DNA of 64,000 nt from Bacillota bacterium (GTDB lineage: Bacteria > Bacillota > Dehalobacteriia > UBA4068). A program made the translations under genes and the position numbers. The number at the start of each line of letters is the position of its first letter. Within the stretch, counting starts at the first letter, position 1. The stretch lies in NCBI GenBank assembly GCA_024679955.1, contig JAILCQ010000010.1, positions 15,277 through 79,276 of the forward strand, read 5' to 3'. This document shows positions 804 to 50,753 of the stretch, piece by piece. Under the pieces are notes generated by a model. The model worked only from the letters and a program-made list of their open reading frames with translations. It searched no databases and was not told the origin of the DNA.

Positions 804-904
804 ACTTTCATCTGCCGGCGACTGTTTCGGCCCTCTTATGCCGCCGGCTCCATGCTCCAAACAACTGCATATCACGTTTAAGCCACATAAATTAGATATA
901 GCCT

Positions 905-1080
905 TACTGTATTTGATTTATTTAGAGGAATCGGGTGAAAGTCCCGAACGGTACCGCCGCTGTAAGCGTTTGGCGCTATGTTCGTTGGCGAAAGTCAGTC
1001 ACTGGGAAACTGGGAAGGCAGAACATAGGGCGCAGGCGAAGCCTGAAAACGCAAGTCAGAATACCAGCTTAAATGGTTTC
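905..1080 (+). promoter_or_regulatory. Cobalamin (AdoCbl) riboswitch
   Basis: Contains AGGAATCGGGTGAAAGTCCCGAACGGTACCGCCGCTGTAAGCG, matching the GGGAA / GGUGnAAnUCC / GCCGCUGUAAG core. B12-box-like GTCACTGGGAAACTGGGAAGGC, then AAGTCAGAATACCAGC resembling AGUCAGGAGACCUGCC. Matches the E. coli btuB leader pattern. Confidence 0.85.
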
Positions 1081-1136
1081 CGTCTGTAGAACGACGCATT
1101 GTCGGTACGGATACGCCGATGGGATTTATGCACAGA

Positions 1137-2546: not shown

Positions 2547-2600
2547 GAAATGGAGACAGTTTCGCATGTATTTCGTATATACAAGAGGTTGGTGATCAGG

Positions 2601-3227
2601 ATGGATTATACTACCAAGACTTGTCAGGAATTTGCCGCTGCATTGGCCAGCAAAGAGCCGATCCCCGGCGGCGGCGGCGCCTCGGCTTACGTAGGCGCCT
2701 TAGGGATCGCATTGGGCAATATGGTCGGCAATTTGACCTTGGGCAAGCCCAAATATCAGGCGGTGGAGCAGGATATCGCCGAACTGATGCAGCAGGCACA
2801 GGAAACCCAGGCGCAGTTGTTGTCCCTGGTGAACGAAGACGCGACGGCCTTTTTGCCTTTGTCCAAGGCTTACGGCTTGCCCAAGAATACGCCGGAAGAA
2901 AAAGCCCATCGGGCGGCGGTGATGGAAGAAGCCCTGCAAGGGGCTTGCGCCGTTCCTCTGAAAATCATGGAGGCATGCGCCCGGGCCATCCGCATCTTGC
3001 AGGATTTCGCTGTCAAAGGCAGCTCCATCGCCATCAGCGACGTGGGCGTCGGCGTGGCGCTTTGCCAGGCGGCGCTGAAAGGGGCCTCGCTGAACATATT
3101 TATCAACGTGGGTTTGATGAAAGACCGGCAGGCCGCCGAAGAATGGCAAAGCCGGGCCCAGGGGTTGCTGGATGAATACATCCCCCTGGCGGAGCAGATC
3201 TATCAGCAGGTGACGGCAAGATTATAA
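2601..3227 (+). CDS. fchA: Methenyltetrahydrofolate cyclohydrolase / formiminotransferase-cyclodeaminase-like (FchA)
   Basis: 208 aa cyclodeaminase/cyclohydrolase-family sequence (MDYTTKTCQEFAAALASKEPIPGGGGASAY…). ATG at 2601 chosen over upstream ATG 2550. Confidence 0.8.
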   Translation: MDYTTKTCQEFAAALASKEPIPGGGGASAYVGALGIALGNMVGNLTLGKPKYQAVEQDIAELMQQAQETQAQLLSLVNEDATAFLPLSKAYGLPKNTPEEKAHRAAVMEEALQGACAVPLKIMEACARAIRILQDFAVKGSSIAISDVGVGVALCQAALKGASLNIFINVGLMKDRQAAEEWQSRAQGLLDEYIPLAEQIYQQVTARL

Positions 3228-3295: not shown

Positions 3296-4147
3296 ATGGG
3301 GCAGATTTTGCAAGGCAAGCCGGTGGCCCTGGCCTTGAGCCAACAACTGAAGGAAAGGGTGGCGGATATGCGCCGGCAGGGAAAGACCCCGCGTTTGGCC
3401 ATTGTCCGCCTGGGAGAAGCGCCGGATGATATTGCCTATGAAAAAAGCGCGATCAAATGCTGCCGGGATCACGAGGTGGACGTACAGAGCATCGTTTTGC
3501 CTGCCGGCACCGGGGAAGAACAACTGTTGGCGCATTTGCAGGCCGTCAACGACGACAAACAAACAGATGGTTGCCTGTTGCTCAAGCCGTTGCCGCCTGG
3601 CATTCGCGAAAGCAAAGCGGCGGAAGCATTAGCCCCGCAAAAAGACGTGGATGGTATCACCCCCGGTTCTTTGGCCCATTTGTGCGGCCTGGATATCGCC
3701 GGTTTCCCGCCCTGTACCGCCCAGGCCTGCCTGGAAATATTGGATCACTATCAGATAGACGCGGCCGGCAAACGGGCCGTGATCATCGGCCGCAGTCTGG
3801 TGGTAGGCAAACCTTTGGCCATGCTGCTGTTGGCCAGGAACGCCACGGTGACGGTTTGCCACAGCAAAACCAAGGACTTGCCCGCCGTCGTCCGGGAGGC
3901 GGATATCGTGGTCGCCGCCATGGGCCGGGCCCGGTTGTTGGGCGCGGAGTATTTCCGTCCGGGGCAAATCGTTTTGGATGTGGGCATCAATTTTGACGAT
4001 CAGGGCAAAATGTGCGGCGATGTGGACTTTGCCCAGGTAGAGCCGATCGTTGCCGCCATTACGCCGGTGCCGGGAGGCGTGGGCGCGGTCACCAACCGGG
4101 TGCTGCTGAAGCATGTGGTGGACGCCGCCCAGCGTGTTTTGGGTTAA
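3296..4147 (+). CDS. folD: Bifunctional methylenetetrahydrofolate dehydrogenase / methenyl-THF cyclohydrolase FolD
   Basis: 283 aa, classic FolD N-terminus (ILQGKPVA…LAIVRLGE…) and Rossmann C-domain. RBS GGGGGAG. Confidence 0.92.
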   Translation: MGQILQGKPVALALSQQLKERVADMRRQGKTPRLAIVRLGEAPDDIAYEKSAIKCCRDHEVDVQSIVLPAGTGEEQLLAHLQAVNDDKQTDGCLLLKPLPPGIRESKAAEALAPQKDVDGITPGSLAHLCGLDIAGFPPCTAQACLEILDHYQIDAAGKRAVIIGRSLVVGKPLAMLLLARNATVTVCHSKTKDLPAVVREADIVVAAMGRARLLGAEYFRPGQIVLDVGINFDDQGKMCGDVDFAQVEPIVAAITPVPGGVGAVTNRVLLKHVVDAAQRVLG

Positions 4148-8433: not shown

Positions 8434-9813
8434 ATGAAATTATGGGGTGGCCGCTTTGCCGGCACAACCGACAAATTTGCCGAAGACTTTCAGTCTTCTA
8501 TCGGTTTTGATCAACGTTTATATCGGGAAGATATTCAAGGCTCTATCGCCCATGCTACGATGTTGGGAAGCCAAGGGATCATCAGCCAGGAGGAAGCCCG
8601 ACGCATATGCCAGGCTTTGCAGGAGATCGAAAAGGAGATACAAGAGGGGAAAGTGGTTTTCAACGTGGCGGCGGAAGATATTCATATGAATATCGAACAG
8701 TTGCTGACGGAAAAATTGGGCGAACTGGGCAAAAAACTGCACACCGCCCGCAGCCGCAACGATCAAATCGCCGTGGATATGCGCCTGTGGATGCGGGGGC
8801 ATATGGCCGAAGTCCGGGAAAAATTGCTGGATTTGGAAAAGGTTTTGCTGCGCAAGGCAGAGGAGCATGTGGATACGGTAATGCCCGGCTATACCCATTT
8901 GCAAATTGCCCAACCCATCACCTTTGCCCATCATTTGCTGGCCTATGTGCAGATGTTCCACAGAGACCGGCAGCGTTTGGCGGATTGTAGCCGCCGCATG
9001 AATCAGTCTCCCCTGGGCAGCGGCGCTTTGGCCGGCACCACCTTTCCCATCGACCGGCGGCAAACCGCGGCGGCTTTGGGCTTTGACGCGCCTACCGCCA
9101 ATTCCCTGGACGGCGTATCCGACCGGGATTTCCTTTTGGAATACATGGCGGCGGCCTCCATCCTGATGATGCATTTGTCCCGTTTCTGCGAGGAAATCAT
9201 TCTCTGGAGCAGCCACGAATATGCTTTCGTTACTTTGGACGACGCTTTTTCCACCGGTTCTTCCATTATGCCGCAAAAAAAGAATCCGGATATGGCGGAA
9301 TTGATCCGCGGCAAAACCGGCCGGGTGTACGGGAATCTGATGGGCCTGCTGACGGTGATGAAAGGCCTGCCGCTGGCCTACAACAAAGATATGCAGGAAG
9401 ACAAAGAGGCGGTTTTCGAGGCGGCGGATACGGTGCTGGCTTGCCTGACCGTGTTCATCCCCATGCTGGATACCATGCGGATCAATAAGCAGAATATGCG
9501 GAACGCCGCCGGCGGCGGTTTTATCAACGCCACCGACATGGCCGATTATCTGGTCAAGCGGGGATTGCCTTTCCGGGACGCCCATGGGGTGACCGGACGG
9601 CTGGTTTTATATTGCGAGGCCCAGAAGAAAGAATTGGGTCAGTTGACCCTGGAGGAATTGCGCCGGGAATGCGACCTGTTTGACGAGGATCTCTATCAGG
9701 CCATATCCCTGCAGCAATGCGTGGCCGCCCGGGAAAGCGAAGGCGGACCCGCGCCCCGGGCCGTTTTGGCGGCGATACGCCGGGCCAAAGAAGAATTGGA
9801 GCTAAGCGAATAA
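8434..9813 (+). CDS. argH: Argininosuccinate lyase
   Basis: [19 protein letters not shown]… N-terminus and fumarate-lyase signature region. RBS AAAGGGGGAAG. Confidence 0.93.
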
Positions 9814-14672: not shown

Positions 14673-15445
14673 ACATATTATTAACCAATGATGACGGAAT
14701 ACAATCTTCCGGTTTGCGCATATTGGCGGAGGCGCTGCTGGAATTGGGCGACATATATATCGCCGCCCCTTCCCTGGAACAAAGCGGCGTCAGCCATGGT
14801 CTTACCGCCCATGTGCCATTGCGGGCGCATCGGATAGACTATGCGGCAGCCGTCAAATGCGCCTGGTCCATAGACGGCACGCCGGCGGATTGCGTCAAGC
14901 TGACAATCGAAAGATTGCTGCCGCAAAAGCCGGATGTGGTGATCTCCGGGATCAACTTTGGGGCAAATTTGGGCACGGATGTGATTTATTCGGGAACGGT
15001 GGCCGGCGCTATGGAAGGCTATTTGTTCGGCCTGCCGGCCATGGCCCTGTCGGTCACCGGCATACGCCGGGGCGTGGGCCAAGGGAATTTTGCCTATGCC
15101 GCCCGGCTCTGCCAACAAATATGCCTGACCTGGCAGCAGCAGGATTTTAAGCCCCGCACCATGTTGAACATAAACGTGCCTGGGCAAAACCCGCAGGAGA
15201 TCAAGGGCGTTCGCTTTACCCGCCTGGGTTGGCGCTGGTATCATGACGCCTATGAGCAAAGGCTGGATCCCAATGGACGGCCCTATTACTGGCTGCAGGG
15301 TACCGCTTACGACGGCGAAGATCCGGGGGATACGGACGTATCCGCCTGCCGGGAAGGCGTGGTATCGATCACCCCTTTGTTCAATGATATGACCGATACG
15401 GCCGCCTTGCAAACGCTGCAGCATACTTTTGACCTTCCGCGTTGA
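14669..15445 (+). CDS. surE: 5'/3'-nucleotidase SurE
   Basis: MNILLTNDDGIQSSGL N-terminus. 4-nt overlap with lepB stop. Confidence 0.9.
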   Translation: MNILLTNDDGIQSSGLRILAEALLELGDIYIAAPSLEQSGVSHGLTAHVPLRAHRIDYAAAVKCAWSIDGTPADCVKLTIERLLPQKPDVVISGINFGANLGTDVIYSGTVAGAMEGYLFGLPAMALSVTGIRRGVGQGNFAYAARLCQQICLTWQQQDFKPRTMLNINVPGQNPQEIKGVRFTRLGWRWYHDAYEQRLDPNGRPYYWLQGTAYDGEDPGDTDVSACREGVVSITPLFNDMTDTAALQTLQHTFDLPR

Positions 15446-15635: not shown

Positions 15636-15676
15636 AAAACGCGTGATCTTACAAGGAAGATCACGCGTTTTATAAT
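15636..15676. terminator. Bidirectional terminator between surE (+) and the minus-strand methyltransferase operon
   Basis: AAAAACGCGTGATCTT-ACAAGG-AAGATCACGCGTTTT with flanking A and T runs. Confidence 0.8.
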
Positions 15677-15715
15677 CTGCATTTTCAGCCGATCGAATAT
15701 ATCATCCCGATGGGC

Positions 15716-16819
15716 TTAGGCCAGGATTTCTTTAAAGGCAGCAACCAGTTTTTTGTTCATTTCCATGGTGCCGATGCTGATCCGGGAGCAGGTGGGGCAA
15801 TTCCAGCCGCCGCCCACGGCGATCAACAGGCCTTGACGGCGCAATTTGTCGGCGATTTCTCTGGCGTCCCGATGGAAATCCACAAAGATAAAGTTGGTGT
15901 AGGAAGGTTGGCAGGTGAAGCCCATGGCGGTAAATTCTTTGGTCAGATATTCTTTACCTTCTTTGTTCACCGCCAGAGTCTTATGCAGGAATTCTTCGTC
16001 GTCCATGGCCGCCAAAGCCGCATCCTGGGCCACACGGTTCACGGCAAAATATTCCACGGTCCGGCGCATCAATTCGATCAGGTATTCCGGTCCCATGATG
16101 TAACCGATACGGCAGCCGGCCATACCGAAGATTTTCGATAAGGTACGGATGACCAGGACTTTTTTACCGGCATTTACATATTGCAGGCTGTTGGGATAAT
16201 CGGCGGCGTCCACAAATTCCGCATAGGCTTCGTCAAATATCACGATCACATTGTCCGGAATGTCTTTCATGAATTCTTTGACTTCATCTTCTTTGACAAT
16301 GGTGCCGGTGGGGTTATTGGGGTTGCAGACCATGATCAGCTTGGTTTTGGGCGTGATGGCCGCTTTTATGGCTTTCAGATCCACGGTGTAATTTTTCAGG
16401 GGAACCGTGACCAATTTGCCGCCTACCAATTGCACCGTGGTGTTATAAACGAAGAAATGGGGGCTGCCGACGATCATTTCTTCCCCTTCGTTGAGGAAGG
16501 TTTCCGTCAGCATCAGCAAAACATTGTCTGCGCCGTTGCCAAACAATACTTGCATTTCGTCAATGCCGTTGGCTTTGGCCACTTTGCGGCGCAATTCGGT
16601 GCAGGTGGCGTCAGGATAAAGGAAAACGTCTTTGGCATGTTCCTGAATCGCCGCGATGGCTTTGGGAGAAGTGCCCAAAGGATTTTCATTGCAATTAAAA
16701 GACAATACTTCTTTTAAGTTGAATTCTTTTTTCAATTCTTCATTGGTTTGTTCCGGCAGATTGGGGTCGTTTCCCAAGATACAGGGTCTTACCAGTTCAG
16801 CGCCTTTGACATTAGCCAT
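15716..16819 (-). CDS. Class-II (HisC/CobD-family) PLP aminotransferase; last gene of the minus-strand methyltransferase transcription unit
   Basis: 367 aa with NPNNPTG and SKIFGMAGCRIGY motifs. HisC versus threonine-phosphate decarboxylase CobD cannot be distinguished by eye. Confidence 0.8.
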   Translation of the reverse strand: MANVKGAELVRPCILGNDPNLPEQTNEELKKEFNLKEVLSFNCNENPLGTSPKAIAAIQEHAKDVFLYPDATCTELRRKVAKANGIDEMQVLFGNGADNVLLMLTETFLNEGEEMIVGSPHFFVYNTTVQLVGGKLVTVPLKNYTVDLKAIKAAITPKTKLIMVCNPNNPTGTIVKEDEVKEFMKDIPDNVIVIFDEAYAEFVDAADYPNSLQYVNAGKKVLVIRTLSKIFGMAGCRIGYIMGPEYLIELMRRTVEYFAVNRVAQDAALAAMDDEEFLHKTLAVNKEGKEYLTKEFTAMGFTCQPSYTNFIFVDFHRDAREIADKLRRQGLLIAVGGGWNCPTCSRISIGTMEMNKKLVAAFKEILA

Positions 16820-16933
16820 GTTGCATACCTTCCTCTCGGTTAAAATTTGATACCAAAACGGTTTTTTTATAAGATGAGGCCAAGAAGTGATAACCTCTTG
16901 GCCTCATGCCATACCAAAGTGAAACGATTAAGA

Positions 16934-18310
16934 TTAGTAAATGAAGTTGACGCCCATCTTGGCGACTTCTTCTTTACATTTGTAGAACAGATCCAGGTAT
17001 TCGGGCTTGGGAACGCATTTGAGCACGTCGTAAGCTTCATGGAAGGGCACGCCATAGTTGTCATGCGGGATCTTCTCTTCGTATTTGGCCAAGAGTTTGT
17101 TGACAACTTCGCTGGCTTCTTCGCGGGTCATATGCTGCGCAACTACGCTGTGGGCAACTTCCGCGGCGAAGCGGGCTTCCAAGGGAGTACCATGGTTGTG
17201 GATCTTGTTGCGGCAGGGCGCGCAGGTCCACAGGTTGTTACCGGAAACGACGCTGGAAATAGCATGGGCAGCGCCTTCATAGAACAGCATGTCGGTCATG
17301 GGGCCGGCATTGGCGAAGCAGTTGGAGTCGTTGACCAGATGGGTGTTGCGGGCAACGGCTTGGGTGTAGGCGCTGATGATCCACAGCATCTCTCTGCCGG
17401 TGTTGGAACCGTAGAGGAGATGGAAGGGGAAGTTCTGGGAGAAGGAAGCGCCGTATACGCACAAACCTTGGAGAATGAAAGCGATCTGCAGGATGGCGGT
17501 ACCTTCCGCGCCGCCGGCATAACCGCCGTAGATGGCGCCGGGCAGGATGGCGCAGAGGTTACCCATTTGGTTGTAATGGATCGCTTTGTTCAGCATCTGG
17601 TTGTTGGTCATCAATTCGGTGATACCGCCGCACAGACGGGCGTCGCCGGCGCGTACACCCCATTGATCGTTGCTGACCGCGATCTGGGCCATATCGGATT
17701 CAGCAGTACCGACGGCTACGAAGAAGACGTCGGGACGGCCGGCCAAACGGGCGGTTTCTCTCAGGGTCATGGCATGGTGCATGGAGCCGCCGATTTCCAG
17801 CGGGAAGTGAGAGGTCATGGGACGTCCCATGAAGTCGCCCAGCAACGGGGAGCAAATGCCGTCCAGCAAGGGCTCTTTCAGGTAAGACAAGCAGGCGTTG
17901 AAGAAGACCTGTTCGTCATAGGTGATGTCCGGGCTCATGATGATGAACGGTTTTTCGGTATCTTCGACTTTGCGGTGACCGTAACGACGGAGGTCATGGT
18001 TTTTGCCGACCAGGTAGTAAGAAGGCGCGGCAAACAAATCTTCGTTGACTTCCCGTTCGTCAAATTCGATCACGCGATGGGTATCTTGGTTGTAAACGCC
18101 GACCGTGAGGAACAGTTCTTTACCGGCTTGCCAAACTTTGTCGGCCAGCTCGTCGCTGGTGTTGACCGGTTTGGACAGGTCCGCTTTGATCTCGTATTTG
18201 CGGATCAATTTTTTGATGGTCGGCATCAAGCTCTTTTTAACAAAATAATTTTCTTCCATGAAGGGGCCGTTTTGCGCCCGTTCCATTACTTCCCAAAGTC
18301 TAACTGCCAT
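16934..18310 (-). CDS. MtmB-family (monomethylamine:corrinoid methyltransferase-like) MT1, 458 aa, no in-frame UAG/pyrrolysine codon
   Basis: Colinear similarity to archaeal MtmB: GVYNQDTHRVIEF, IYGGYAGGAEGTA, LLYGSNTGREML, NAGPMTDMLFYEGAAHAI, TPLEARFAAEVA, EAYDVLKCVPKPEY. Same length as MtmB. The region aligned to the Pyl site reads LAGRPDVFFVAVGTAES. RBS GGGGGTG. Confidence 0.8.
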   Translation of the reverse strand: MAVRLWEVMERAQNGPFMEENYFVKKSLMPTIKKLIRKYEIKADLSKPVNTSDELADKVWQAGKELFLTVGVYNQDTHRVIEFDEREVNEDLFAAPSYYLVGKNHDLRRYGHRKVEDTEKPFIIMSPDITYDEQVFFNACLSYLKEPLLDGICSPLLGDFMGRPMTSHFPLEIGGSMHHAMTLRETARLAGRPDVFFVAVGTAESDMAQIAVSNDQWGVRAGDARLCGGITELMTNNQMLNKAIHYNQMGNLCAILPGAIYGGYAGGAEGTAILQIAFILQGLCVYGASFSQNFPFHLLYGSNTGREMLWIISAYTQAVARNTHLVNDSNCFANAGPMTDMLFYEGAAHAISSVVSGNNLWTCAPCRNKIHNHGTPLEARFAAEVAHSVVAQHMTREEASEVVNKLLAKYEEKIPHDNYGVPFHEAYDVLKCVPKPEYLDLFYKCKEEVAKMGVNFIY

Positions 18311-18325
18311 TTATCTACACCCCCG

Positions 18326-18964
18326 TTATTTTTGTACTAAATTGTTTACCAGCGTCACGGCTTCCGCAGCACTTTCGGCCCAACCGTCGGCGCCGATATC
18401 TTTCGCCCAATTGGGATTGGTGGGCGCGCCGCCAACGATAACTTTGAATTTGCCATACAAGTCTTTGTCTCTCAAAAGATTGATCACTTCGGTCGCGCCG
18501 GGCATGGTGGTGGTCATCAAAGCGGAAACGCCGATAACGTCGGCTTCGTTTTCAACGGCTTTGTTGACATAATCAATGGCGGGGACGTTTTTGCCGAGGT
18601 CAACTACGTCAAAACCGTCAGCGGTCAAAACGGTGACAACGATGTTCTTACCGATTTCATGCATGTCGCCAGGGGCGGTGCCCAGAACGACGGTGCCTTT
18701 CTTTTGGATGTCGCCGCTTTCCGCGAGGACGGGTCCAAAGATGTCCATGGCGGCGACCATGGCGTCGGCGGACAGGATCATTTCGGGCAGGAAGATTTCC
18801 ATAGCTTCGAATTGACGGCCCAGTTCACGCATGGTGTCGGTGAGCTTTTCAATAACGGGTTTCAGATCCGCTTTGGCATCGACGATTTCCTGTGCCGCTT
18901 CAGCGGATACTTCGTCGTCGCCATCCATGATGGCTTCAGTTAATTTCTTGATGCTTTCTTCCAT
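18326..18964 (-). CDS. Cobalamin-binding corrinoid protein (MtmC/MtaC-like)
   Basis: 213 aa from ATG with RBS GGAGGT. N-terminal helical cap domain, then a B12-binding Rossmann domain with GDMHEIGKNIV (DxHxxG) and VIGVSALMTTTM. 15 nt upstream of the MT1 gene. Confidence 0.88.
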   Translation of the reverse strand: MEESIKKLTEAIMDGDDEVSAEAAQEIVDAKADLKPVIEKLTDTMRELGRQFEAMEIFLPEMILSADAMVAAMDIFGPVLAESGDIQKKGTVVLGTAPGDMHEIGKNIVVTVLTADGFDVVDLGKNVPAIDYVNKAVENEADVIGVSALMTTTMPGATEVINLLRDKDLYGKFKVIVGGAPTNPNWAKDIGADGWAESAAEAVTLVNNLVQK

Positions 18965-19177
18965 AAATATACCTCCATTTTTTGTTCTGCTGCAAGCAGA
19001 TGAAAGAAGTTCCGCTTGCGTCCCCCTCCGACAGAAACCGTCCCGGCCATGGGAACATGTCCCAGGCATAGGCCAAGACATAAAGATAATAATTTATCTT
19101 GATGAAACTATTTTATCACATGAGAAAAAAAACTACAATAGGTATTTTATAAAAATTGAAAAAAATTGCCGAAAAAA

Positions 19178-20806
19178 TTATTCCGCTTTGATCCGGGGAA
19201 AACTCATGGCGCCGATGAACTCTTCCTGAAAATTGGGACAGTCGGCCAATTCCACATGTTCGATCTCCGCCAGCTTGTTGTAAATGTACTGCCGCTCCTT
19301 GGAGGACAGCAAGGCGATGGAGGAGCCTGCGCCGGCGGCGTTGCCCAGAGGAATGATATGATCCAAGGGAATATTGGGCAGCAGCCCCAAAACCACGGCG
19401 CTTTCCTTATTAATAAAGTTGCCGAAAGCGCCGGCCAGCAGCACGGTGTCGATATCCGCCACGGTTTTGCCGGCGGCCTGCAGCATCAGCAGGATGCCGC
19501 TGTAGATGGCCCCTTTGCCCAATTGCATTTGCCGTACGTCTTTGTGGTTGAGGACGATTTCCCGTCCGTCGTCGCCTTGGGCCAAAACGAACTCGGTGAT
19601 ATTGTCTTCGGTCTTGTGCAAACGCCATGCCAGATCCGGCGGCAATTCCTGCTGCGCCGCTTTCTGGCTGATCATTTTGCCGGAGGGCAGGATGACGCCG
19701 GCGGTGATCAGCGCCGCGGTGGCGTCGATCAGGCCGGAGCCGCAAATGCCCCTGGCTGGCGCGTCGTCTACGGTATGCACCAGCAGCTTGCCTTCGATGA
19801 CCTTGACGCTTTCAATGGCGCCGGCGGCGGCCCGCATGCCGTGATGGATGGAAGCCCCTTCAAAGGCCGGGCCGGCTGCGGTGGAGCAGGCCCAGGTATG
19901 GCCGTCGGCCTGCAGGATCACTTCGCCGTTGGTGCCCAGGTCGATGAGGATATGCACGCCGCTTTTTTCCATCAGGCGGGAGGTCAATATGCCCGCCACC
20001 AGGTCGGAACCTACATGGCCGGCGATATTCGGCAGCAAGTAGACGTCGCCTTCCGGATGGATGCGAATGCCGATCTCCGTGGCTTTTAATTCCTTGGGGC
20101 CGGTAAAGGCCGGCGTAAAGGGTATCCTGGCCAGGGTGGAAGGGGAGAGGCCCAGGAACAAATGGCTCATGGTGGTATTGCCAACCACGGTGGCTTTGCG
20201 GATTAAGTCCCGCTGGATGGAATGCCTTTCGATCAGCGTATCCGCCAGTTCGTTGAGACAGCCGATGATTTTATCGTGCATGACCTGCAGATTGCCGGGC
20301 TTTTCTTCGCAGTAGTTGATCCTGGTGATGACGTCCGCGCCGAAAACGCTCTGAGGATTGGTTTGGGCGGCAATGTCGATCAATTCTGCCTCTTTCATAT
20401 CCCACAGCATACATACCACGGTGGTGGTGCCGATATCGAAAGCCAGACCGTAGCATTGCTCTGCGGTTTTTTCCGGTACGAAATCATCGGGGAAATATAA
20501 CAGTTTGGTCTTGCGGGCGTCGGCGTTTTTCATCTTCGGCACCAGGATGCGCATATTGTCTATGACATGCACCCGGCAGGCCAGGCGATAGCCCTGATCC
20601 AATTCTTCTTGAGGGATCAGCTCCTTTTCCGCTTCGTCCGCCGGCGGGGTTTTGCCGGAAACCACCTGGATCTTGCAGCAGCCGCAAACGCCGGCCCCGG
20701 CGCAGCTGCCGTCGATATGTATACCGGCCTCGAACAATACCTGCAGCAAAGAGGTGCCTTCCGCTACCTGGCATTTGATATTATTGGGCAAAATGGTTAT
20801 TTCCAT
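19178..20806 (-). CDS. ramA: RamA-type reductive activator of corrinoid proteins (N-terminal 2Fe-2S ferredoxin + ASKHA ATPase domain)
   Basis: 542 aa. N-terminal CAGAGVCGCC…C ferredoxin cysteines. DIGTTTV and LIDLGTNGE actin-fold phosphate motifs. RBS AAAGGAG. Confidence 0.85.
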   Translation of the reverse strand: MEITILPNNIKCQVAEGTSLLQVLFEAGIHIDGSCAGAGVCGCCKIQVVSGKTPPADEAEKELIPQEELDQGYRLACRVHVIDNMRILVPKMKNADARKTKLLYFPDDFVPEKTAEQCYGLAFDIGTTTVVCMLWDMKEAELIDIAAQTNPQSVFGADVITRINYCEEKPGNLQVMHDKIIGCLNELADTLIERHSIQRDLIRKATVVGNTTMSHLFLGLSPSTLARIPFTPAFTGPKELKATEIGIRIHPEGDVYLLPNIAGHVGSDLVAGILTSRLMEKSGVHILIDLGTNGEVILQADGHTWACSTAAGPAFEGASIHHGMRAAAGAIESVKVIEGKLLVHTVDDAPARGICGSGLIDATAALITAGVILPSGKMISQKAAQQELPPDLAWRLHKTEDNITEFVLAQGDDGREIVLNHKDVRQMQLGKGAIYSGILLMLQAAGKTVADIDTVLLAGAFGNFINKESAVVLGLLPNIPLDHIIPLGNAAGAGSSIALLSSKERQYIYNKLAEIEHVELADCPNFQEEFIGAMSFPRIKAE

Positions 20807-21009
20807 GCAGAGAAACTCCTTTAAATCGTGGAACGGTGAAAAGACAGATTATGGATGCTATTTCAGTGTGCTGCCGTCAAAAAACGTTCCGAATTTATTA
20901 TTCAACATATAGTATTGTGTGTGTAAGTCTAAACTCCTGCCGGGATGCCCACTGTTTTCCATATATTTTTGCGGGGAAATTTTTTTCGGCGAAAGCGATG
21001 GATTGCCGC

Positions 21010-21062
21010 TTGTATTCCCTCCGTTTTTTTGGTAATATATTAGGGTAGATCATGTATGATCT
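21010..21062 (+). promoter_or_regulatory. Promoter (TTGTAT-17-TAATAT) with a 16-bp palindrome AGATCATgtATGATCT at the predicted start site: candidate operator of the YheO-type regulator gene
   Basis: TTGTAT 21010-21015, TAATAT 21033-21038. Perfect 7-bp inverted arms at 21047-21062. Confidence 0.5.
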
Positions 21063-21156
21063 GCTTTTGTGTCTATTTTTTTCTTCGCCATTCGACGCCG
21101 GGTCCCAAGCCCTCCGGCAGACAAAACCAACGTTTGGCGGCTGCGGAGGTATCGCT

Positions 21157-21804
21157 GTGCATGAAAAACTGAAATTCTATTTGGACTTTGCTGAGTTTTT
21201 AGGCAAATCCGTGGATAAGAATACCGAAGTCGTTTTGCATGAGACGGTAGGCGACAATCCCGGTATCGTATATATTTATAACGGATATGTCAGCGGCCGG
21301 CAGGTCGGCGCGCCGTTAAGCGAGTTTTCTCAGGAAATGGTCAACAATAAAGAAGACCATTCCCTTTACCGCGTCAATTATGCCACGGTGGCCAACGATG
21401 GCAGCATCCTTCGTTCGTCCAGTTTCTTTATCCGCGACGACGACAATACGCTGCTGGGAATATTGTGCATCAATTCCAATGTTTCCCAGTACCTGCAGCT
21501 CAGCGAACAATTGCGGGAGCTGGCCGGGCTGTCTTTTGATGAAGAAGTGTCGGACGGCGACGATACGCAAATCTATCTGACTTCCGCCAAAGATGTTATA
21601 TTGGAAAATATCCAAAGCATTTTGACTGATATGAACGTCAACACACCGCCCAACCGTTTGACCGCCGCCGAAAAACAAATCGTCATCAATGTGCTGCACA
21701 AACGGGGTATTTTCAATCTAAAGGGATCCGTGGCCAAGGTGGCGGCCATCATGTGCGTTTCCGAGCCGACGATATACCGCTATTTGCCGAAAAGCAATCT
21801 GTAA
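21157..21804 (+). CDS. YheO-type transcriptional regulator (PAS-like sensor + C-terminal HTH)
   Basis: Matches E. coli YheO blocks (VVLHE…, GYVSGRQVGAPLS, LLGILCINSNV, EKQIVINVLHKRGIFNLKGSVAKVAA…EPTIYRYL). GTG 21157 preceded by GGAGGT. Upstream ATG 21052 lies inside the promoter/operator. Confidence 0.78.
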   Translation: MHEKLKFYLDFAEFLGKSVDKNTEVVLHETVGDNPGIVYIYNGYVSGRQVGAPLSEFSQEMVNNKEDHSLYRVNYATVANDGSILRSSSFFIRDDDNTLLGILCINSNVSQYLQLSEQLRELAGLSFDEEVSDGDDTQIYLTSAKDVILENIQSILTDMNVNTPPNRLTAAEKQIVINVLHKRGIFNLKGSVAKVAAIMCVSEPTIYRYLPKSNL

Positions 21805-21888
21805 AAGCAGGCCGGGACGGTGGGCGCAAAATGTTTTCCCTGCGCCTTGGCCGGAGAAAAATTTTTTTCTTTTCGCGATAAAAATTTA

Positions 21889-21917
21889 TCAAAAGGGATT
21901 GCAATTCTTAGTGATTT
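21889..21917 (+). promoter_or_regulatory. sigma-A promoter (TTGCAA-17-TAGAAT) for the MT2-GTPase operon
   Basis: TTGCAA 21889-21894, 17-nt spacer, TAGAAT 21912-21917, in an AT-rich 190-nt spacer. Confidence 0.55.
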
Positions 21918-21994
21918 GGTATAGAATTAAAACAAAAATTTAGCGTAAAGCTAATTGGTCAATCATATATATTATATTTTAGGAGGTCTTTTGC

Positions 21995-23356
21995 ATGAAC
22001 GGAAAAGAATTACTGTTTGAAGTGTTGCGTCATCATGACACGCCGCGGGTTCCTTGGGTGCCTTTCGCCGGTATCCATGCCGGTAAACTGGCCAACTACA
22101 CCGCCCAGGAAATCCTCATGGACGGAGACAAACTCTTTAAATCCCTGATGGAGGTCAACAAAATTTACCGTCCCGACGGACAACCGGTATTGTTCGACCT
22201 GCAAATGGAAGCGGAAATTTTGGGCTGCGAATTGCTGTGGGCCGAATACGCGCCTCCGTCCGTAATGAGCCATCCCCTGGAAAACACCAAAACCATTCCC
22301 TGCTCCTGCACCATTCCGGAAAAAACCGACGGACGTCTGCCCATGGCCTTGGACGTCATGCGCCGGATGAAAGAGGCCGTTGGCGAAACCACCGCTTTGT
22401 ACGGCCTGACCACCGGTCCTTTGACCCTGGCTTCCCATTTGCGGGGCACCAATCTGTTCCGGGATATGCGCAAAGACGGCGAATATGTAAAAGAGCTGTT
22501 TAATTACTGCAACGAAGTCAACAAAGCCATGGCGGACTACTATATCGAAGCCGGCATGGACGTGATCGCCGCCGTTGACCCGGTATTGTCCCAGATCTCC
22601 GCCAAGCACTTTGAGACTTATCTGATGGATTGCTATACGGATCTGTTCAACCACATCCGTGAAAAAGGCGCTTTTGCCGCGTTCTTCGTCTGCGGCGACG
22701 CCACCCGCAACATCGAAGTGATGTGCCAATCCGGTCCGGACTGCATCGCCGTGGACGAAAACGTCAACATGGCCCAGGCCAAGGAAATCACCGACAAATA
22801 CAATATCGCCCTGTGCGGCAATATCCCGCTGACCACCACCATGTTGTTCGGCACCCAGCAGGACAATATGAAATACGCCTTGGAAATGCTGGATACCCTG
22901 AATCATCACAACCTGATTATTGCCCCCGGCTGCGATATGCCCTATGATATCCCCATCGAAAACACCGTGGGTGTGGTACAGGCCCTGCATGAACCGGAAC
23001 AGGTTCGCGAAATCCTCAAGAACTACGAAGCGCCTATCGACGAAGACGTGGATGTGGAACTGCCGGATTACAACAATCTGCCCCGTCCTTTGGTGGAAGC
23101 CTATACTTTGGACTCCGCTTCCTGCGCCGCCTGCACCTATATGTATGCCGCCGCTATGGACGTCAAGAAACATTTCGGCGACAAAGTCGACGTGGTGGAA
23201 TACAAATACATCAACAAGGAAGATATCCCGCGCTTCAAAAAGCTCGGCATCCAGCATCTGCCCAGCCTCTTGATCAACGGCGAACTGAAATATTCCTCCA
23301 TCATTCCCGAACGGCAGGAATTGTTTGATGAAGTCGAAAAACTCTTGAACAAATAA
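21995..23356 (+). CDS. URO-D-family methylcorrinoid methyltransferase (MtaA/MtbA-like MT2) fused to a C-terminal thioredoxin-like CxxC domain
   Basis: Residues about 1-340 show the URO-D/MtaA pattern (…LIIAPGCDMPYDIPIENT…). Residues about 355-453 (LVEAYTLDSASCAACTYMY…VDVVEYKY…LPSLLINGELKYS…) give the beta-CxxC-alpha / cis-Pro-beta thioredoxin_3 / glutaredoxin-like pattern. RBS AGGAGG. Confidence 0.8.
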   Translation: MNGKELLFEVLRHHDTPRVPWVPFAGIHAGKLANYTAQEILMDGDKLFKSLMEVNKIYRPDGQPVLFDLQMEAEILGCELLWAEYAPPSVMSHPLENTKTIPCSCTIPEKTDGRLPMALDVMRRMKEAVGETTALYGLTTGPLTLASHLRGTNLFRDMRKDGEYVKELFNYCNEVNKAMADYYIEAGMDVIAAVDPVLSQISAKHFETYLMDCYTDLFNHIREKGAFAAFFVCGDATRNIEVMCQSGPDCIAVDENVNMAQAKEITDKYNIALCGNIPLTTTMLFGTQQDNMKYALEMLDTLNHHNLIIAPGCDMPYDIPIENTVGVVQALHEPEQVREILKNYEAPIDEDVDVELPDYNNLPRPLVEAYTLDSASCAACTYMYAAAMDVKKHFGDKVDVVEYKYINKEDIPRFKKLGIQHLPSLLINGELKYSSIIPERQELFDEVEKLLNK

Positions 23357-23466
23357 AGCATAATCATATCAAACACAACCATCAAAGCATAACGCGCCAG
23401 GGTTTATTTCCTTTGGCGTGTTATGCTTTATGAGCAAGCGTATGCGGAAAGGGAAAGGGAAAGGCT

Positions 23467-24438
23467 ATGTTTAAGATTTCTGACGAAGGTATGAGCATTG
23501 CCAGCGGCAGGATCAAACTGTATATCGTCAACGGCTTTTTGGGCGCCGGCAAAACCACGATGATGCAGCAATTGATGGACGTTTGGCATGACAAAAAAAT
23601 GGCAATCATCGTCAACGAATTCGGCGACGCCGGCATGGACGGCGCCGTTTTGGCCCAGGAAGGCATCAAATTAACGGAGATCAATAACGGCTCCATATTC
23701 TGCACCTGCCGGGCGGAGAATTTTATCGAAGCTTTGGTACAGATGACCAATTTAGACGTTTCCTTGGTGCTGGTAGAAAGCTCCGGTCTGGCCAATCCCG
23801 CCGGCGTGGGCAAAATCGTTTCTTTGGTGCAAAAAATGACCAATGACAGCTATGAGTATAAGGGCAGCCTGACCATGGTGGACGTCCTGGGCTTCTGGGA
23901 TGTGCGCTATACCTCGGTCATGGCGCAGCAGCAGGTGATCTGCAGCGATCTGCTGGTGGTGAATAAAATCGATTTGGCCACAGAAGAGGAAATCGAAGAA
24001 ATCGAAGCGGAATTGCGCCAGATGAACCCCTATGCCGATATCGTTCGCGCCACCTTTGCCAAAGTGGACCGCAAAGTCTTCGACCAGATGGACGGACATT
24101 ACAGCGCCAGCGACCGCAACTGGGGTGGCGGCAAAGTGATCGGCACCCAAAAATGGCTGGTTTCCTTCAAAGGCGATTACCGTCAGGAAGATGTGGAACA
24201 ATGGCTGAAGCTGATCGCCCCCTATATGTACCGGGCCAAAGGCTTTGTGAAGATCGACGGAGCCTGGCATTACATCGACAGCACCAATACCTTGATCAGC
24301 ATCAAGGATACCAATATCGAGCCGGAAGAAGACAGCGCGGTGATTTTGGCCCCCGGTAATCAGCCCATCAAAGAAAAAATGGACGAAGCCTGGAAACAAG
24401 TCTTCGGCGGCAGCGATAAAGAACTGGTCTATATGTGA
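23467..24438 (+). CDS. COG0523 / CobW-family G3E GTPase (metallochaperone-type)
   Basis: GFLGAGKTT Walker A, a Cys-x-Cys metal motif (SIFCTCRAE), VVNKIDL G4 box and a C-terminal CobW_C-like domain. Partial hairpin terminator between it and the MT2 gene. Confidence 0.8.
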   Translation: MFKISDEGMSIASGRIKLYIVNGFLGAGKTTMMQQLMDVWHDKKMAIIVNEFGDAGMDGAVLAQEGIKLTEINNGSIFCTCRAENFIEALVQMTNLDVSLVLVESSGLANPAGVGKIVSLVQKMTNDSYEYKGSLTMVDVLGFWDVRYTSVMAQQQVICSDLLVVNKIDLATEEEIEEIEAELRQMNPYADIVRATFAKVDRKVFDQMDGHYSASDRNWGGGKVIGTQKWLVSFKGDYRQEDVEQWLKLIAPYMYRAKGFVKIDGAWHYIDSTNTLISIKDTNIEPEEDSAVILAPGNQPIKEKMDEAWKQVFGGSDKELVYM

Positions 24439-49574: not shown

Positions 49575-49689
49575 AGGCGTTTATTTTAGATTTTTTTGCA
49601 AGCTTTGCGGGCATTTGCCTGTATATATTAGGAGACGCTTGTGCTATAATAAATGTAAGGGGCATTCCCAGCGGAAAGGAGTTGAGCGC

Positions 49690-50163
49690 ATGGCGGGAAA
49701 TAAAACCGGCGTAAAGATCATCTGCGAAAACCGCAAAGCCCGCCATGAATATCATTTCCTGGAACTTTTTGAGGCGGGTATCTCTCTACAGGGTACGGAA
49801 GTGAAGTCCCTGCGAGCGGGGCGCGGCAATTTACAGGACGCCTTCGCCAAAGTGGAAAACGGCGAAATGATGCTGTACAATATGCATATCAGCCCCTACG
49901 AAATGGGCAATCGCTTCAATCATCAGCCCAAACGTACCCGCCGGCTGCTGCTGCATAAATCGGAGATCCGTCACATCTACGCCAAGGTGCGGGAAAAAGG
50001 CCTGACGGTGATCCCGGTAAAGGCCTATTTTTCCGGCAGCCGGGTAAAGGTGGAACTGGCCTTGGCCCAGGGCAAAAAGCTTTACGATAAGCGCCAGGAT
50101 ATGATGGCCAAAGACGCCAGGCGGGATATGGATCGGGCGCTCAAGGAAAGGAGCAGGCAATAA
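49690..50163 (+). CDS. smpB: SsrA-binding protein SmpB
   Basis: Conserved SmpB sequence (…ICENRKARHEYHF…GISLQGTEVKSLR…). Immediately upstream of tmRNA. Confidence 0.93.
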   Translation: MAGNKTGVKIICENRKARHEYHFLELFEAGISLQGTEVKSLRAGRGNLQDAFAKVENGEMMLYNMHISPYEMGNRFNHQPKRTRRLLLHKSEIRHIYAKVREKGLTVIPVKAYFSGSRVKVELALAQGKKLYDKRQDMMAKDARRDMDRALKERSRQ

Positions 50164-50404: not shown

Positions 50405-50753
50405 GGGGCTGTACCGGTTTCGACGGGGGATGGATTGGCGAAATAAGCGAGCCGGGATCCCACTTGCCCGTAAAACAGTGGAAACAAATTAATTTGCCAA
50501 AACAAATTCTTCTTTAGCTGCTGCTTAAGCAGTCTAACCCTGTGACCGCCTGGCCTGTAGGGTAGTTTACAGGGTCATGCATACAGGCTGCCTCCGACGG
50601 CTTTTCCCGTCCGGCGGAGGGAGAAACAGGGAATAGCGTCGATTCAGGCCGTTGGCAGCCGGTTTCGCCGCGAATACAAAGTGCCAACTGCGCTCGGAGA
50701 AGGTTTTGTGGATCCTCTTTCGGACAGGAGTTCGACTCTCCTCAGCTCCACCA
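50405..50753 (+). ncRNA. ssrA: tmRNA (SsrA)
   Basis: 5' GGGGCTGTACCGGTTTCGACGGGG…, T-arm GGAGTTCGACTCTCC and 3' CAGCTCCACCA. Candidate tag ORF GCC AAA ACA AAT TCT TCT TTA GCT GCT GCT TAA (A-KTNSSLAAA) at 50496-50528. Confidence 0.92.

Follow-up and report, generated by a model that had tools for sequence, protein, structure and literature searches.

The window analyzed here is a stretch of 64,000 nucleotides (nt) from Bacillota bacterium (GenBank assembly GCA_024679955.1, contig JAILCQ010000010.1, forward-strand positions 15,277 to 79,276; coordinates below count from its first letter). Its region 15716–24438, an 8.7-kb block of two divergent operons with seven open reading frames (ORFs), very probably encodes a complete corrinoid methyl-transfer system, with a methyltransferase 1 (MT1) of the MtmB family, a corrinoid protein, a candidate methyltransferase 2 (MT2), and a reductive activase (Table 1). 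All parts of a three-component corrinoid methyltransferase set and its activase are thus encoded together, in a block that is kept as a unit. MT1 lacks pyrrolysine (Pyl), and the conserved neighbours of its relatives favour a methylated amino acid, and not methylamine, as its substrate. The analysis shows directly which genes and domains are present, that pyrrolysine is absent, that the block is conserved, and how often neighbouring genes co-occur. An earlier note, made from the letters of this DNA, had placed seven ORFs here, assigned their domains, and concluded that every part of an MT1/corrinoid/MT2/activase system is present; the ORF list gave the same seven ORFs, Pfam and NCBIfam profile searches agreed with each domain call, and all parts were recovered, with a protein of the MtaA fold as the MT2 candidate.

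Table 1. Features of the methyltransferase locus (window coordinates; aa, amino acids; PLP, pyridoxal phosphate; URO-D, uroporphyrinogen decarboxylase; Trx, thioredoxin).
Feature	Coordinates	Strand	Details
Intrinsic terminator	15636..15671	-	15-bp perfect stem, 6-nt loop, T run; 45 nt past the aminotransferase stop; ends the minus-strand unit
HisC-family class I/II PLP aminotransferase, 367 aa	15716..16819	-	PF00155 210 bits; last gene of the minus-strand unit
Inverted repeat	16863..16918		core GAGGCCAAGA.../...TCTTGGCCTC; in the 114-nt MT1-aminotransferase spacer
MT1, MtmB family, 458 aa	16934..18310	-	PF05369 292.4 bits; uninterrupted ORF
Corrinoid protein, 212 aa from Met40	18326..18964 (ORF to 19081)	-	PF02310 + PF02607; DxHxxG = GDMHEIG
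RACo-type ATP-dependent reductive activase, 542 aa	19178..20806	-	Fer2 + RACo_middle + RACo_C_ter (N-terminal 2Fe-2S, middle, and ASKHA domains)
Palindrome AGATCAT-GT-ATGATCT	21047..21062		divergent promoter region of the activase and regulator genes
YheO-family regulator	21157..21804 (longest ORF from 21052)	+	PAS_6 + HTH_22
Promoter-like site TTGCAA-17-TAGAAT	21899..21927	+	5' of the URO-D/Trx gene; stretch to the ribosome-binding site highly conserved with L005
URO-D/Trx fusion, 453 aa, candidate MT2	21995..23356	+	PF01208 171 bits; PF13192 (Thioredoxin_3) 31 bits
Inverted repeat, 16 nt, 94% complementary	23384..23429		URO-D/Trx-CobW-like spacer
CobW/COG0523-type GTPase, 323 aa	23467..24438	+	PF02492 136 bits; Walker A GFLGAGKTT

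Related loci carry L numbers. Compared to L005, from a metagenome-assembled genome (MAG) of an uncultured Peptococcaceae, positions 15714–24432 are collinear with 83% nucleotide identity, whereas the flanks share 75–78%. Just past the aminotransferase gene, L005 contains an insertion of 4.7 kb encoding an extracytoplasmic function (ECF) sigma factor, DUF4358, a GDSL lipase, and DUF4901; given this unrelated content, the extra DNA was rejected as part of the locus. Because L005 is collinear over the block while the DNA beyond it differs, 15716–24438, aminotransferase gene included, behaves as a single conserved unit with exactly the extent that the earlier note gave. Parts of the block reappear in distant phyla, and judged by these comparisons the gene arrangement is not due to chance. 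The block lies between the housekeeping genes surE and dpaA. Together with the others in the window (ispH-S1, argH, a DinG-like helicase gene, asd, dapA, the RNase J gene, spoVT, uvrAC, whiA, gap-pgk-tpi-gpmI, smpB with the gene for transfer-messenger RNA (tmRNA), argR, and nadK), they form a housekeeping set of a spore-forming Bacillota bacterium.

MT1 covers positions 3–449 of the 450 positions of the MtmB profile PF05369 (cutoff 25 bits), and shares about 25% identity with MtmB1 of Methanosarcina barkeri (PDB 1L2Q; phmmer E-value 1.3e-43). Its AlphaFold2 (AF2) model is consistent with the MtmB fold (TM-score 0.79–0.80 to 1L2Q/1NTH); the pLDDT of the model is only 72.7, and residues 201–263, just past the Pyl-equivalent site, are poorly predicted. 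At the pyrrolysine site (MtmB1 residue 202 in M. barkeri), the aligned residue of the window protein is Val, located in GRPDVFFVAVGTAESD: MtmB1 reads GRPGMGV-X-GPETS and the window protein GRPDVFF-V-AVGTAESD, and the signature GRPxxFxVA[VA]GTAExD is common to the MT1 clade. The assignment of the 458-aa protein to the MtmB family thus holds over its full length, as does the description of an uninterrupted ORF with different residues at the Pyl position. Within the 64-kb window, which was the scope of this search, no pyl-like domains were detected among the scanned ORFs and no tRNA genes were found. A 497-aa antisense ORF (16847–18340, plus strand) that is longer than the MT1 gene was rejected as an artefact of longest-ORF calling, given the 292-bit MtmB match on the opposite strand.

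Non-Pyl MtmB proteins have been known for years. That characterised members depend on pyrrolysine, as the earlier note had stated, is outdated: MtqB, a non-Pyl MtmB of Methanococcoides methylutens, demethylates tetramethylammonium and choline (Kashyap et al. 2026, PMC13044021), where the function of the remaining non-Pyl MtmBs is described as unknown. A search of 5.8 billion proteins recovered full-length, uninterrupted homologues of the window MT1 with 51–89% identity; in all, the protein has hundreds of homologues with 51–95% identity, from Bacillota, Actinomycetota, Chloroflexota, Desulfobacterota, Spirochaetota, and other phyla; carriers include Clostridia, Dehalobacterium, Ca. Formimonas warabiya, Synergistaceae, Anaerolineae, Aminicenantes, and Desulfobacterales. 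Non-Pyl MtmB homologues are numerous: in a library clustered at 50% identity, 869 clusters reach an E-value of 1e-3 or better. There, the MT1 clade is a single full-length representative (54% identity, 559 bits), and the next matches share at most 37%. A neighbour-joining tree separated the clade from both MtmB1 and 21 Pyl-proximal non-Pyl proteins (23–31% identical to the window MT1); the clade as a whole is 25–34% identical to Pyl-MtmB and the compared Pyl-proximal non-Pyl homologues. These comparisons identify MT1 as a member of a widespread, uncharacterised clade that is probably mis-annotated in public records. Its own record (MCR4962723.1) is labelled 'monomethylamine:corrinoid methyltransferase', a name that is probably wrong; MT1 has no NCBIfam match. 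This record and that of the candidate MT2 belong to a 115,787-bp contig of a Firmicutes MAG.

Ca. Formimonas warabiya DCMF encodes its 62% identical MT1 homologue in a HutP-led cluster (L012, CP017634 5,362,627–5,384,000). In a published DCMF proteome, the protein reported as most strongly induced on dichloromethane is a non-Pyl MtmB, Ga0180325_111810, for which identities of about 30% to the rest of the family are given. Judged by its locus number and these identities, it is probably not the 62% homologue, which lies at 5.37 Mb, but a separate paralogue.

The corrinoid protein gene ends 15 nt before the MT1 start, and in every related locus with a drawn gene map a corrinoid gene lies directly 5' of MT1. 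Translation probably starts at Met40 (position 18964), which gives 212 aa as in the homologues. The best NCBIfam matches are MtgC and pyl_corrinoid, both below cutoff. The activase, which had been read as RamA, is indeed an ATP-dependent activase (PF17651 187 bits, PF14574 247 bits, PF00111 50 bits), and not an archaeal RamA (TIGR04270: 121 bits vs. a cutoff of 500); an AcsV-like NCBIfam model scores 423 bits, below cutoff, and the domains of the activase mark it as the bacterial 2Fe-2S RACo type.

The candidate MT2 (MCR4962727.1, 'thioredoxin family protein') scores 152 bits against the MtaA/CmuA model TIGR01463 (cutoff 235). Its AF2 model (pLDDT 92.4, pTM 0.87) matches MtaA best among PDB entries (4AY7/4AY8; TMt 0.87–0.88, root-mean-square deviation 2.4–2.6 Å), and with the PF01208 match this places it in the URO-D/MtaA fold. 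In the alignment to 4AY7, LHICG corresponds to FFVCG, such that the zinc-ligand His is replaced by Phe231, and Cys233 and Cys313 are retained. The site therefore reads Phe-Cys-Cys and not the His-x-Cys...Cys of the MtaA/MtbA type. The Phe, both Cys residues, and the thioredoxin-like C377-A-A-C380 motif (CAAC) are invariant in 45 homologues. More than 4,500 URO-D/Trx homologues were found, and the fusion is kept in more than 120 proteins (61–100% identity); in Desulfobacterales-type loci, the thioredoxin-like CAAC protein is encoded by a separate gene immediately 3' of the URO-D gene, whereas the two are fused in the window.

The partner GTPase belongs to COG0523 by its Pfam match and Walker A motif, as had been proposed, and departs from that family in its metal motif: GSIFCTC replaces the canonical GCxCC, and the CobW_C match is weak (16.6 bits vs. 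22). GSIFCxC is present in all 16 CobW-like partners of window-type URO-D proteins (among them those of the window, L004, L005, L085, L087, L088, and the Desulfobacterales loci), and L089 has GGCFCC. This sequence pattern suggests a distinct COG0523 subfamily, possibly with a different metal site. The GTPase gene directly follows the URO-D/Trx gene in every context examined (L004, L085, L087, L088, and L089), and the pair lies near a corrinoid protein even without an MtmB homologue, in unrelated Clostridia and Anaerolineae. Because the module pairs with corrinoid proteins in varied contexts, its behaviour fits a modular MT2 that serves different MT1s. Two clostridial loci without MtmB (L087:8001–13163 and L088:6345–12833) combine the pair with DUF2284, a corrinoid protein, and a Pfam-less protein of 412–431 aa, which could be an undescribed MT1 family; the L088 cluster also contains a RACo activase. 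In an Anaerolineae genome, the pair is located inside a microcompartment locus.

In 22 Desulfobacterales-type loci, the URO-D homologue has a TGA codon at the position of Cys313 (APG-C/U-D, the second zinc-ligand Cys of MtaA). Examples are L054:12394–13410, L072:12302–13315, L041:12490–13503, and L050:4567–5583 (Desulfocicer vacuolatum DSM 3385). The stop codon aligned to Cys313 is never TAA or TAG, homology runs on past it, and 15 nt 3' of the TGA lies a conserved hairpin resembling a selenocysteine insertion sequence (SECIS), GATGTTCC-GGC-GGAACATC, with compensatory changes. For these three reasons, we read the TGA as a selenocysteine (Sec) signature, on the evidence of the alignments. The table of prokaryotic selenoproteins in a 2026 review has no 'uroporphyrinogen' or 'MtaA' entry, and the TGA-bearing URO-D/MtaA-family protein looks like a previously unlisted selenoprotein. 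Because Cys and Sec are exchanged at this site, the pattern argues for chalcogen-based catalysis there.

The YheO-type regulator probably starts at GTG 21157, because a GGAGG ribosome-binding site is conserved there in the L005 alignment. The operator-like palindrome described earlier in the divergent promoter region is real and is not conserved in L005; it is a weakly supported candidate operator. A hairpin spacer between the aminotransferase and MT1 genes had also been proposed: the inverted repeat exists, and because it lacks a T run on the coding strand it is not a canonical terminator. No riboswitch was found within the methyltransferase locus.

Gene neighbourhoods were compared in 84 non-redundant loci with members of the MT1 clade, 61 of them at least 10 kb long; neighbours were scored by tblastn and by clustering of all ORFs. 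A corrinoid protein is present in 79 of the 84 loci, a URO-D homologue of the window type in 30 (Bacillota and Desulfobacterota), and a non-Pyl MttB homologue in 29. The aminotransferase, thioredoxin fusion, and GTPase, which the earlier note had singled out as foreign to canonical methylamine systems, are present as described; they are not oddities here and recur as conserved partners in relatives. Amino-acid genes form a second group of neighbours: a HutC-like GntR/UTRA regulator (20 loci), a polar-amino-acid ATP-binding cassette (ABC) transporter (18), HutH (11), HutU (9), a HisC-like aminotransferase (7), IorA (7), HutI (6), an ADP-forming acyl-CoA synthetase (6), and HutP (3). At least one specific histidine-utilisation marker (HutH, HutU, HutI, or HutP) occurs in 16 loci from four phyla, and the enzymes exceed their NCBIfam equivalog cutoffs (HutH 665 vs. 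539, HutU 437 vs. 375, HutI 450 vs. 298). By a rough estimate, hutH is expected in about 0.5% of random 20-kb stretches, compared to 13% of the loci observed here.

The aminotransferase of the window is 88% identical to that of L005, and homologues also lie beside MT1 in DCMF (50%), a Dehalobacterium MAG (52%), L048, L056, and L060. In the Dehalobacterium MAG (MT1 70% identical), a contiguous same-strand series encodes HutP, URO-D/Trx, CobW, the corrinoid protein, MT1, the aminotransferase, IorA, IorB, an ADP-forming acyl-CoA synthetase, and a polar-amino-acid ABC transporter. The DCMF cluster (MT1 62%) contains HutP, the corrinoid protein, MT1, GlcD/GlcF-like proteins, an NhaC/ArcD-like transporter, and the aminotransferase. 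L086 has two HutP genes, and in L007 (MT1 71%) glutamate mutase and methylaspartase genes directly follow MT1, a pair that constitutes a fermentation route for histidine-derived glutamate. A YheO-type regulator occurs only in the window and L005 among the 84 loci; other Firmicute relatives have HutP in its place.

In Bacillus, HutP acts by antitermination at a leader of NAG repeats followed by a terminator. The same layout, NAG-N4-NAG-N4-NAG repeats and then a strong intrinsic terminator, was found 3' of each hutP and 5' of the methyltransferase operons of three Firmicute relatives (L085:6616–6760; L012:9155–9220; L086:8545–8600 and 9251–9310). In L085, URO-D/Trx, CobW, the corrinoid protein, and MT1 are consecutive on one strand behind a single HutP leader. 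From these leaders, a histidine-type antitermination appears to control the corrinoid methyltransferase operon in the three relatives.

A separate set of neighbours was also recorded. A cytoplasmic molybdopterin (Mo) oxidoreductase (PhsA/Fdh-like, ~700 aa) lies beside MT1, the non-Pyl MttB homologue, and hut genes in 23 of the 84 loci (e.g., L028:6763–8865, L072:1565–4128, and L068:12163–16047), often accompanied by a 4Fe-4S dicluster protein and sometimes by a pyridine-nucleotide-disulfide oxidoreductase; a tie to hercynine, ergothioneine, or another thiohistidine is speculation. L004 and L006 encode a PLP enzyme (L004:4653–5696, L006:8711–9757) of the family comprising D-cysteine desulfhydrase, cysteate sulfo-lyase CuyA, and XcbE of bacterial coenzyme M synthesis (~221 bits, below all cutoffs), for which a sulfur link to the methyl acceptor is conceivable. 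In L004, a radical-SAM-like protein is encoded between the URO-D/Trx-CobW pair and the activase.

Taken as a whole, the hut genes, Firmicute clusters, and HutP leaders indicate that demethylation yields an amino acid destined for catabolism, in many lineages histidine. Its breakdown would run through Hut enzymes, or else through transamination, oxidative decarboxylation, and substrate-level phosphorylation. The block works like the known three-component corrinoid demethylases with their activase, and we propose that it carries out catabolic, corrinoid-dependent N-demethylation of a methylated amino acid. The likeliest candidate is a methylated histidine, in N-alpha-methyl or ring-N-methyl form or as an intermediate derived from hercynine; we consider the chances of this proposal evenly balanced. 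For the window MT1 itself, a methylated histidine or aromatic amino acid may well be the substrate, on a judgement that could fall either way. On chemical grounds, a Pyl-free enzyme would act more easily on a cationic donor, i.e., hercynine or the protonated N-methylimidazole ring of N-pi- or N-tau-methylhistidine, than on a secondary alpha-amine. The earlier statement that the substrate cannot be assigned is correct for homology alone, and does not wholly hold once the conserved neighbours are considered. No account of this gene set with a known substrate was found in the literature.

In the proposed scheme, we infer what the substrate is, which way the methyl group flows, what MT2 does, and what the acceptor is. 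MT1 would move the N-methyl group onto the adjacent corrinoid protein in its Co(I) state, and the RACo-type activase, with ATP and one low-potential electron, would restore Co(I) in corrinoid protein that has been oxidised to Co(II). URO-D/Trx, metallated by the CobW-like GTPase, would take the methyl group from methyl-Co(III) to an acceptor; the Cys/Sec site suggests one of thiol or selenol type, and tetrahydrofolate is also possible. The HisC-type aminotransferase would convert the demethylated amino acid into a 2-oxo acid for fermentation, a path that could continue in relatives with indolepyruvate:ferredoxin oxidoreductase and the ADP-forming acyl-CoA synthetase, or be replaced by HutH/U/I. 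Both divergent operons would be governed by the YheO-type regulator.

A number of observations weigh against this proposal. The window block contains no hut, ior, or transporter gene; its sole amino-acid marker is the HisC-type aminotransferase, which passes a housekeeping equivalog and could be plain hisC, and its regulator is of the YheO type, not HutP or HutC. The MT1s of hut-bearing loci are only 51–70% identical to that of the window, and specificity could differ between MT1 sub-clades. The closest relatives outside L005, i.e., L004 (80%) and L006 (74%), carry an NhaC/ArcD-like transporter and the D-cysteine-desulfhydrase/CuyA/XcbE-family enzyme. An aminotransferase with Ior and acyl-CoA synthetase would suit any aromatic amino acid. 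Secondary-amine demethylation without pyrrolysine is chemically hard, and to our knowledge all characterised non-Pyl enzymes of the MttB and MtmB families use quaternary amines. With regard to MT2, a pterin-type methyl-tetrahydrofolate methyltransferase lies beside MT1 in four related loci, both a URO-D and a pterin-type MT2 are missing from 33 of the 61 large loci, and the His-to-Phe change at the zinc ligand leaves MtaA-like chemistry not assured.

If MT1 were in fact a monomethylamine methyltransferase, active in spite of its lack of pyrrolysine, as its public annotation says, its MtmB Pfam membership and NCBI product name would be accounted for. We consider this extremely improbable: Val replaces pyrrolysine within a differently conserved motif, no NCBIfam model matches, the window has neither pyl genes nor tRNA, the neighbours of the clade are amino-acid catabolic genes, and DCMF, which carries the 62% MT1 homologue, cannot grow on monomethylamine (PMC9768040). 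An MtqB-like system, in which the substrate of MT1 is tetramethylammonium, choline, or some other simple quaternary amine and the amino-acid genes are incidental, is very unlikely. MtqB is the only characterised non-Pyl MtmB and acts on tetramethylammonium and choline (PMC13044021), quaternary amines are the substrates of non-Pyl enzymes in both families, and non-Pyl MttB homologues adjoin the MT1 clade in 29 of the 84 loci. However, the same paper places the MtqB clade beside Pyl-MtmBs, whereas the window MT1 falls into a separate deep clade (25% identity to MtmB1, 23–31% to Pyl-proximal non-Pyl proteins); its isolation in the 50%-identity library (one representative at 54%, then at most 37%) likewise sets it apart. 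Across the 84 loci, choline and betaine genes (BCCT transporter, cut, grd) did not appear, and histidine and aromatic amino-acid genes recur near the clade. Hercynine, a quaternary histidine betaine, would reconcile a quaternary amine with the histidine link.

The other two explanations concern single parts of the block. The aminotransferase could be a housekeeping hisC product or a CobD/CobC-like enzyme of cobamide biosynthesis, and as a chance neighbour tell nothing about the substrate. It passes the HisC equivalog TIGR01141 (298.8 bits vs. a cutoff of 276.55) and resembles the CobD threonine-phosphate decarboxylase model (187 bits, below cutoff), its gene is parted from MT1 by the 114-nt hairpin spacer, and HisC-like aminotransferases occur in only 7 of the 84 loci. 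We nevertheless regard this as rather unlikely, given that no other his or cob genes lie nearby in the window, that the gene is inside the L005-conserved block while the DNA beyond differs, and that 50–52% identical aminotransferases are found in the equivalent DCMF and Dehalobacterium MAG clusters, the latter followed by IorAB and the acyl-CoA synthetase as a catabolic set. It is also unlikely that the two operons are functionally separate, with URO-D/Trx and CobW forming a methyl-sulfur or methyl-selenium methyltransferase (Mlp/MtsA-like) that makes its own carrier use of the corrinoid protein or acts as an MT1, and the amine methyl group passing to tetrahydrofolate via an enzyme encoded elsewhere. 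Such a division would agree with the link of bacterial coenzyme M methyltransferase homologues to methyl-S/Se metabolism (PMC10418091), with the replacement of the active-site Cys by Sec in 22 URO-D relatives, with the occurrence of URO-D/Trx and CobW without an MtmB homologue in other genomes, and with pterin-type MT2 genes adjoining MT1 in four loci and FolD and FchA genes in the window. Against it, the block has a single corrinoid protein and a single activase, window-type URO-D recurs beside the corrinoid protein and MT1 in 30 of the 84 loci across Bacillota and Desulfobacterota, URO-D/Trx lacks the His-Cys-Cys site that defines Mlps, and L085 places all four genes on one strand after one HutP leader.

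Among described systems, MtqB/MtqC/MtqA is similar in having a non-Pyl MtmB-family MT1, an adjacent cognate corrinoid protein, and an MT2 of the MtaA/MtbA (URO-D) fold. It differs in being archaeal with coenzyme M as acceptor, and MtqB is reported beside Pyl-MtmBs, a tree region to which the window MT1 is 25–31% identical; judged by that paper's description of where MtqB branches, the window protein is probably outside the MtqB clade. Furthermore, the neighbours of the window clade are amino-acid genes and not methylamine genes, and compared to MtqA the MT2 candidate has a fused thioredoxin-like domain and a CobW-like partner and lacks the zinc-ligand His. The MtmB/MtmC/MtbA/RamA system of Methanosarcina (1L2Q/1NTH) shares the Pfam family, the fold, and the division of labour among four parts (MT1, corrinoid protein, MT2, and activase), whereas the window MT1 has Val and no UAG-encoded pyrrolysine (~25% identity), the activase is of the RACo type with 2Fe-2S, and the block belongs to a spore former of the Bacillota whose window gives no hint of coenzyme M.

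Bacterial non-Pyl MttB systems act on glycine betaine (MtgB), proline betaine (MtpB), carnitine (MtcB), and gamma-butyrobetaine (MtyB) with an MtqC-type corrinoid protein, a pterin-type MT2, and RamQ. They resemble the block in bacterial catabolic N-demethylation, in the pairing of pyrrolysine loss with a new substrate, in the RACo-type activase, and in the corrinoid protein, which in the window is most similar to the MtgC type; the block differs in its MtmB-family MT1, in a URO-D and not pterin-binding MT2 candidate, and in its attached amino-acid catabolic genes. Type 1 mlp clusters likewise encode bacterial coenzyme M methyltransferase homologues together with a RACo-type activase and a corrinoid protein, and S/Se chemistry is suspected; by definition they hold two or more UroD paralogues (Mlp2, Mlp3) whose zinc site is His-Cys-Cys (Kountz and Balskus, PMC10418091). 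The window block, with a single UroD gene and Phe-Cys-Cys, falls outside this definition, and it also has an MtmB-type MT1, a CobW-like partner, and a fused thioredoxin-like domain.

Elsewhere in the window, a cobalamin riboswitch (877–1086, plus strand; 54.8 bits vs. a gathering score of 31.5) is followed by a 213-aa ORF without a Pfam match (1825–2466), an FTCD_C/FchA-like gene (2550–3227), and folD (3296–4147); the FchA-like and FolD genes provide a one-carbon context 12 kb from the block. A truncated TRAP DctM gene at 1–738 is 67% identical to the DctM of the Dehalobacterium locus, and was rejected as a member of the methyltransferase locus, being 15 kb away with housekeeping genes between. 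The tmRNA gene (50405–50753, plus strand; Rfam 175 bits) adjoins smpB (49615–50163); ARAGORN reported neither tRNA nor tmRNA in the window.

For methylhistidines, hercynine, ergothioneine, and ovothiol, natural products that are all abundant, we found no account of corrinoid-dependent demethylation in the literature, nor one that connects corrinoid methyltransferases to methylhistidine, hercynine, or HutP. It is possible, if doubtful, that the MT1 clade comprises the first corrinoid-dependent demethylases of a methylhistidine/hercynine pathway, and that URO-D/Trx with CobW is a new class of methyl-corrinoid methyltransferase (using Cys or Sec and a thiol, selenol, or sulfide acceptor, not tetrahydrofolate or coenzyme M) together with an unlisted URO-D selenoprotein. 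The URO-D/Trx-CobW module bears on the question of the methyl acceptor in non-methanogenic anaerobes that have no pterin-type MT2 beside MT1. Only one member of the large non-Pyl MtmB family has an experimentally shown function, dated 2026, and the link to methylated histidine provides a concrete, testable hypothesis for a clade of gut, sediment, symbiont, and bioreactor anaerobes. If true, the proposal would mean that anaerobes can turn methylated histidines into histidine by a path not recognised before.

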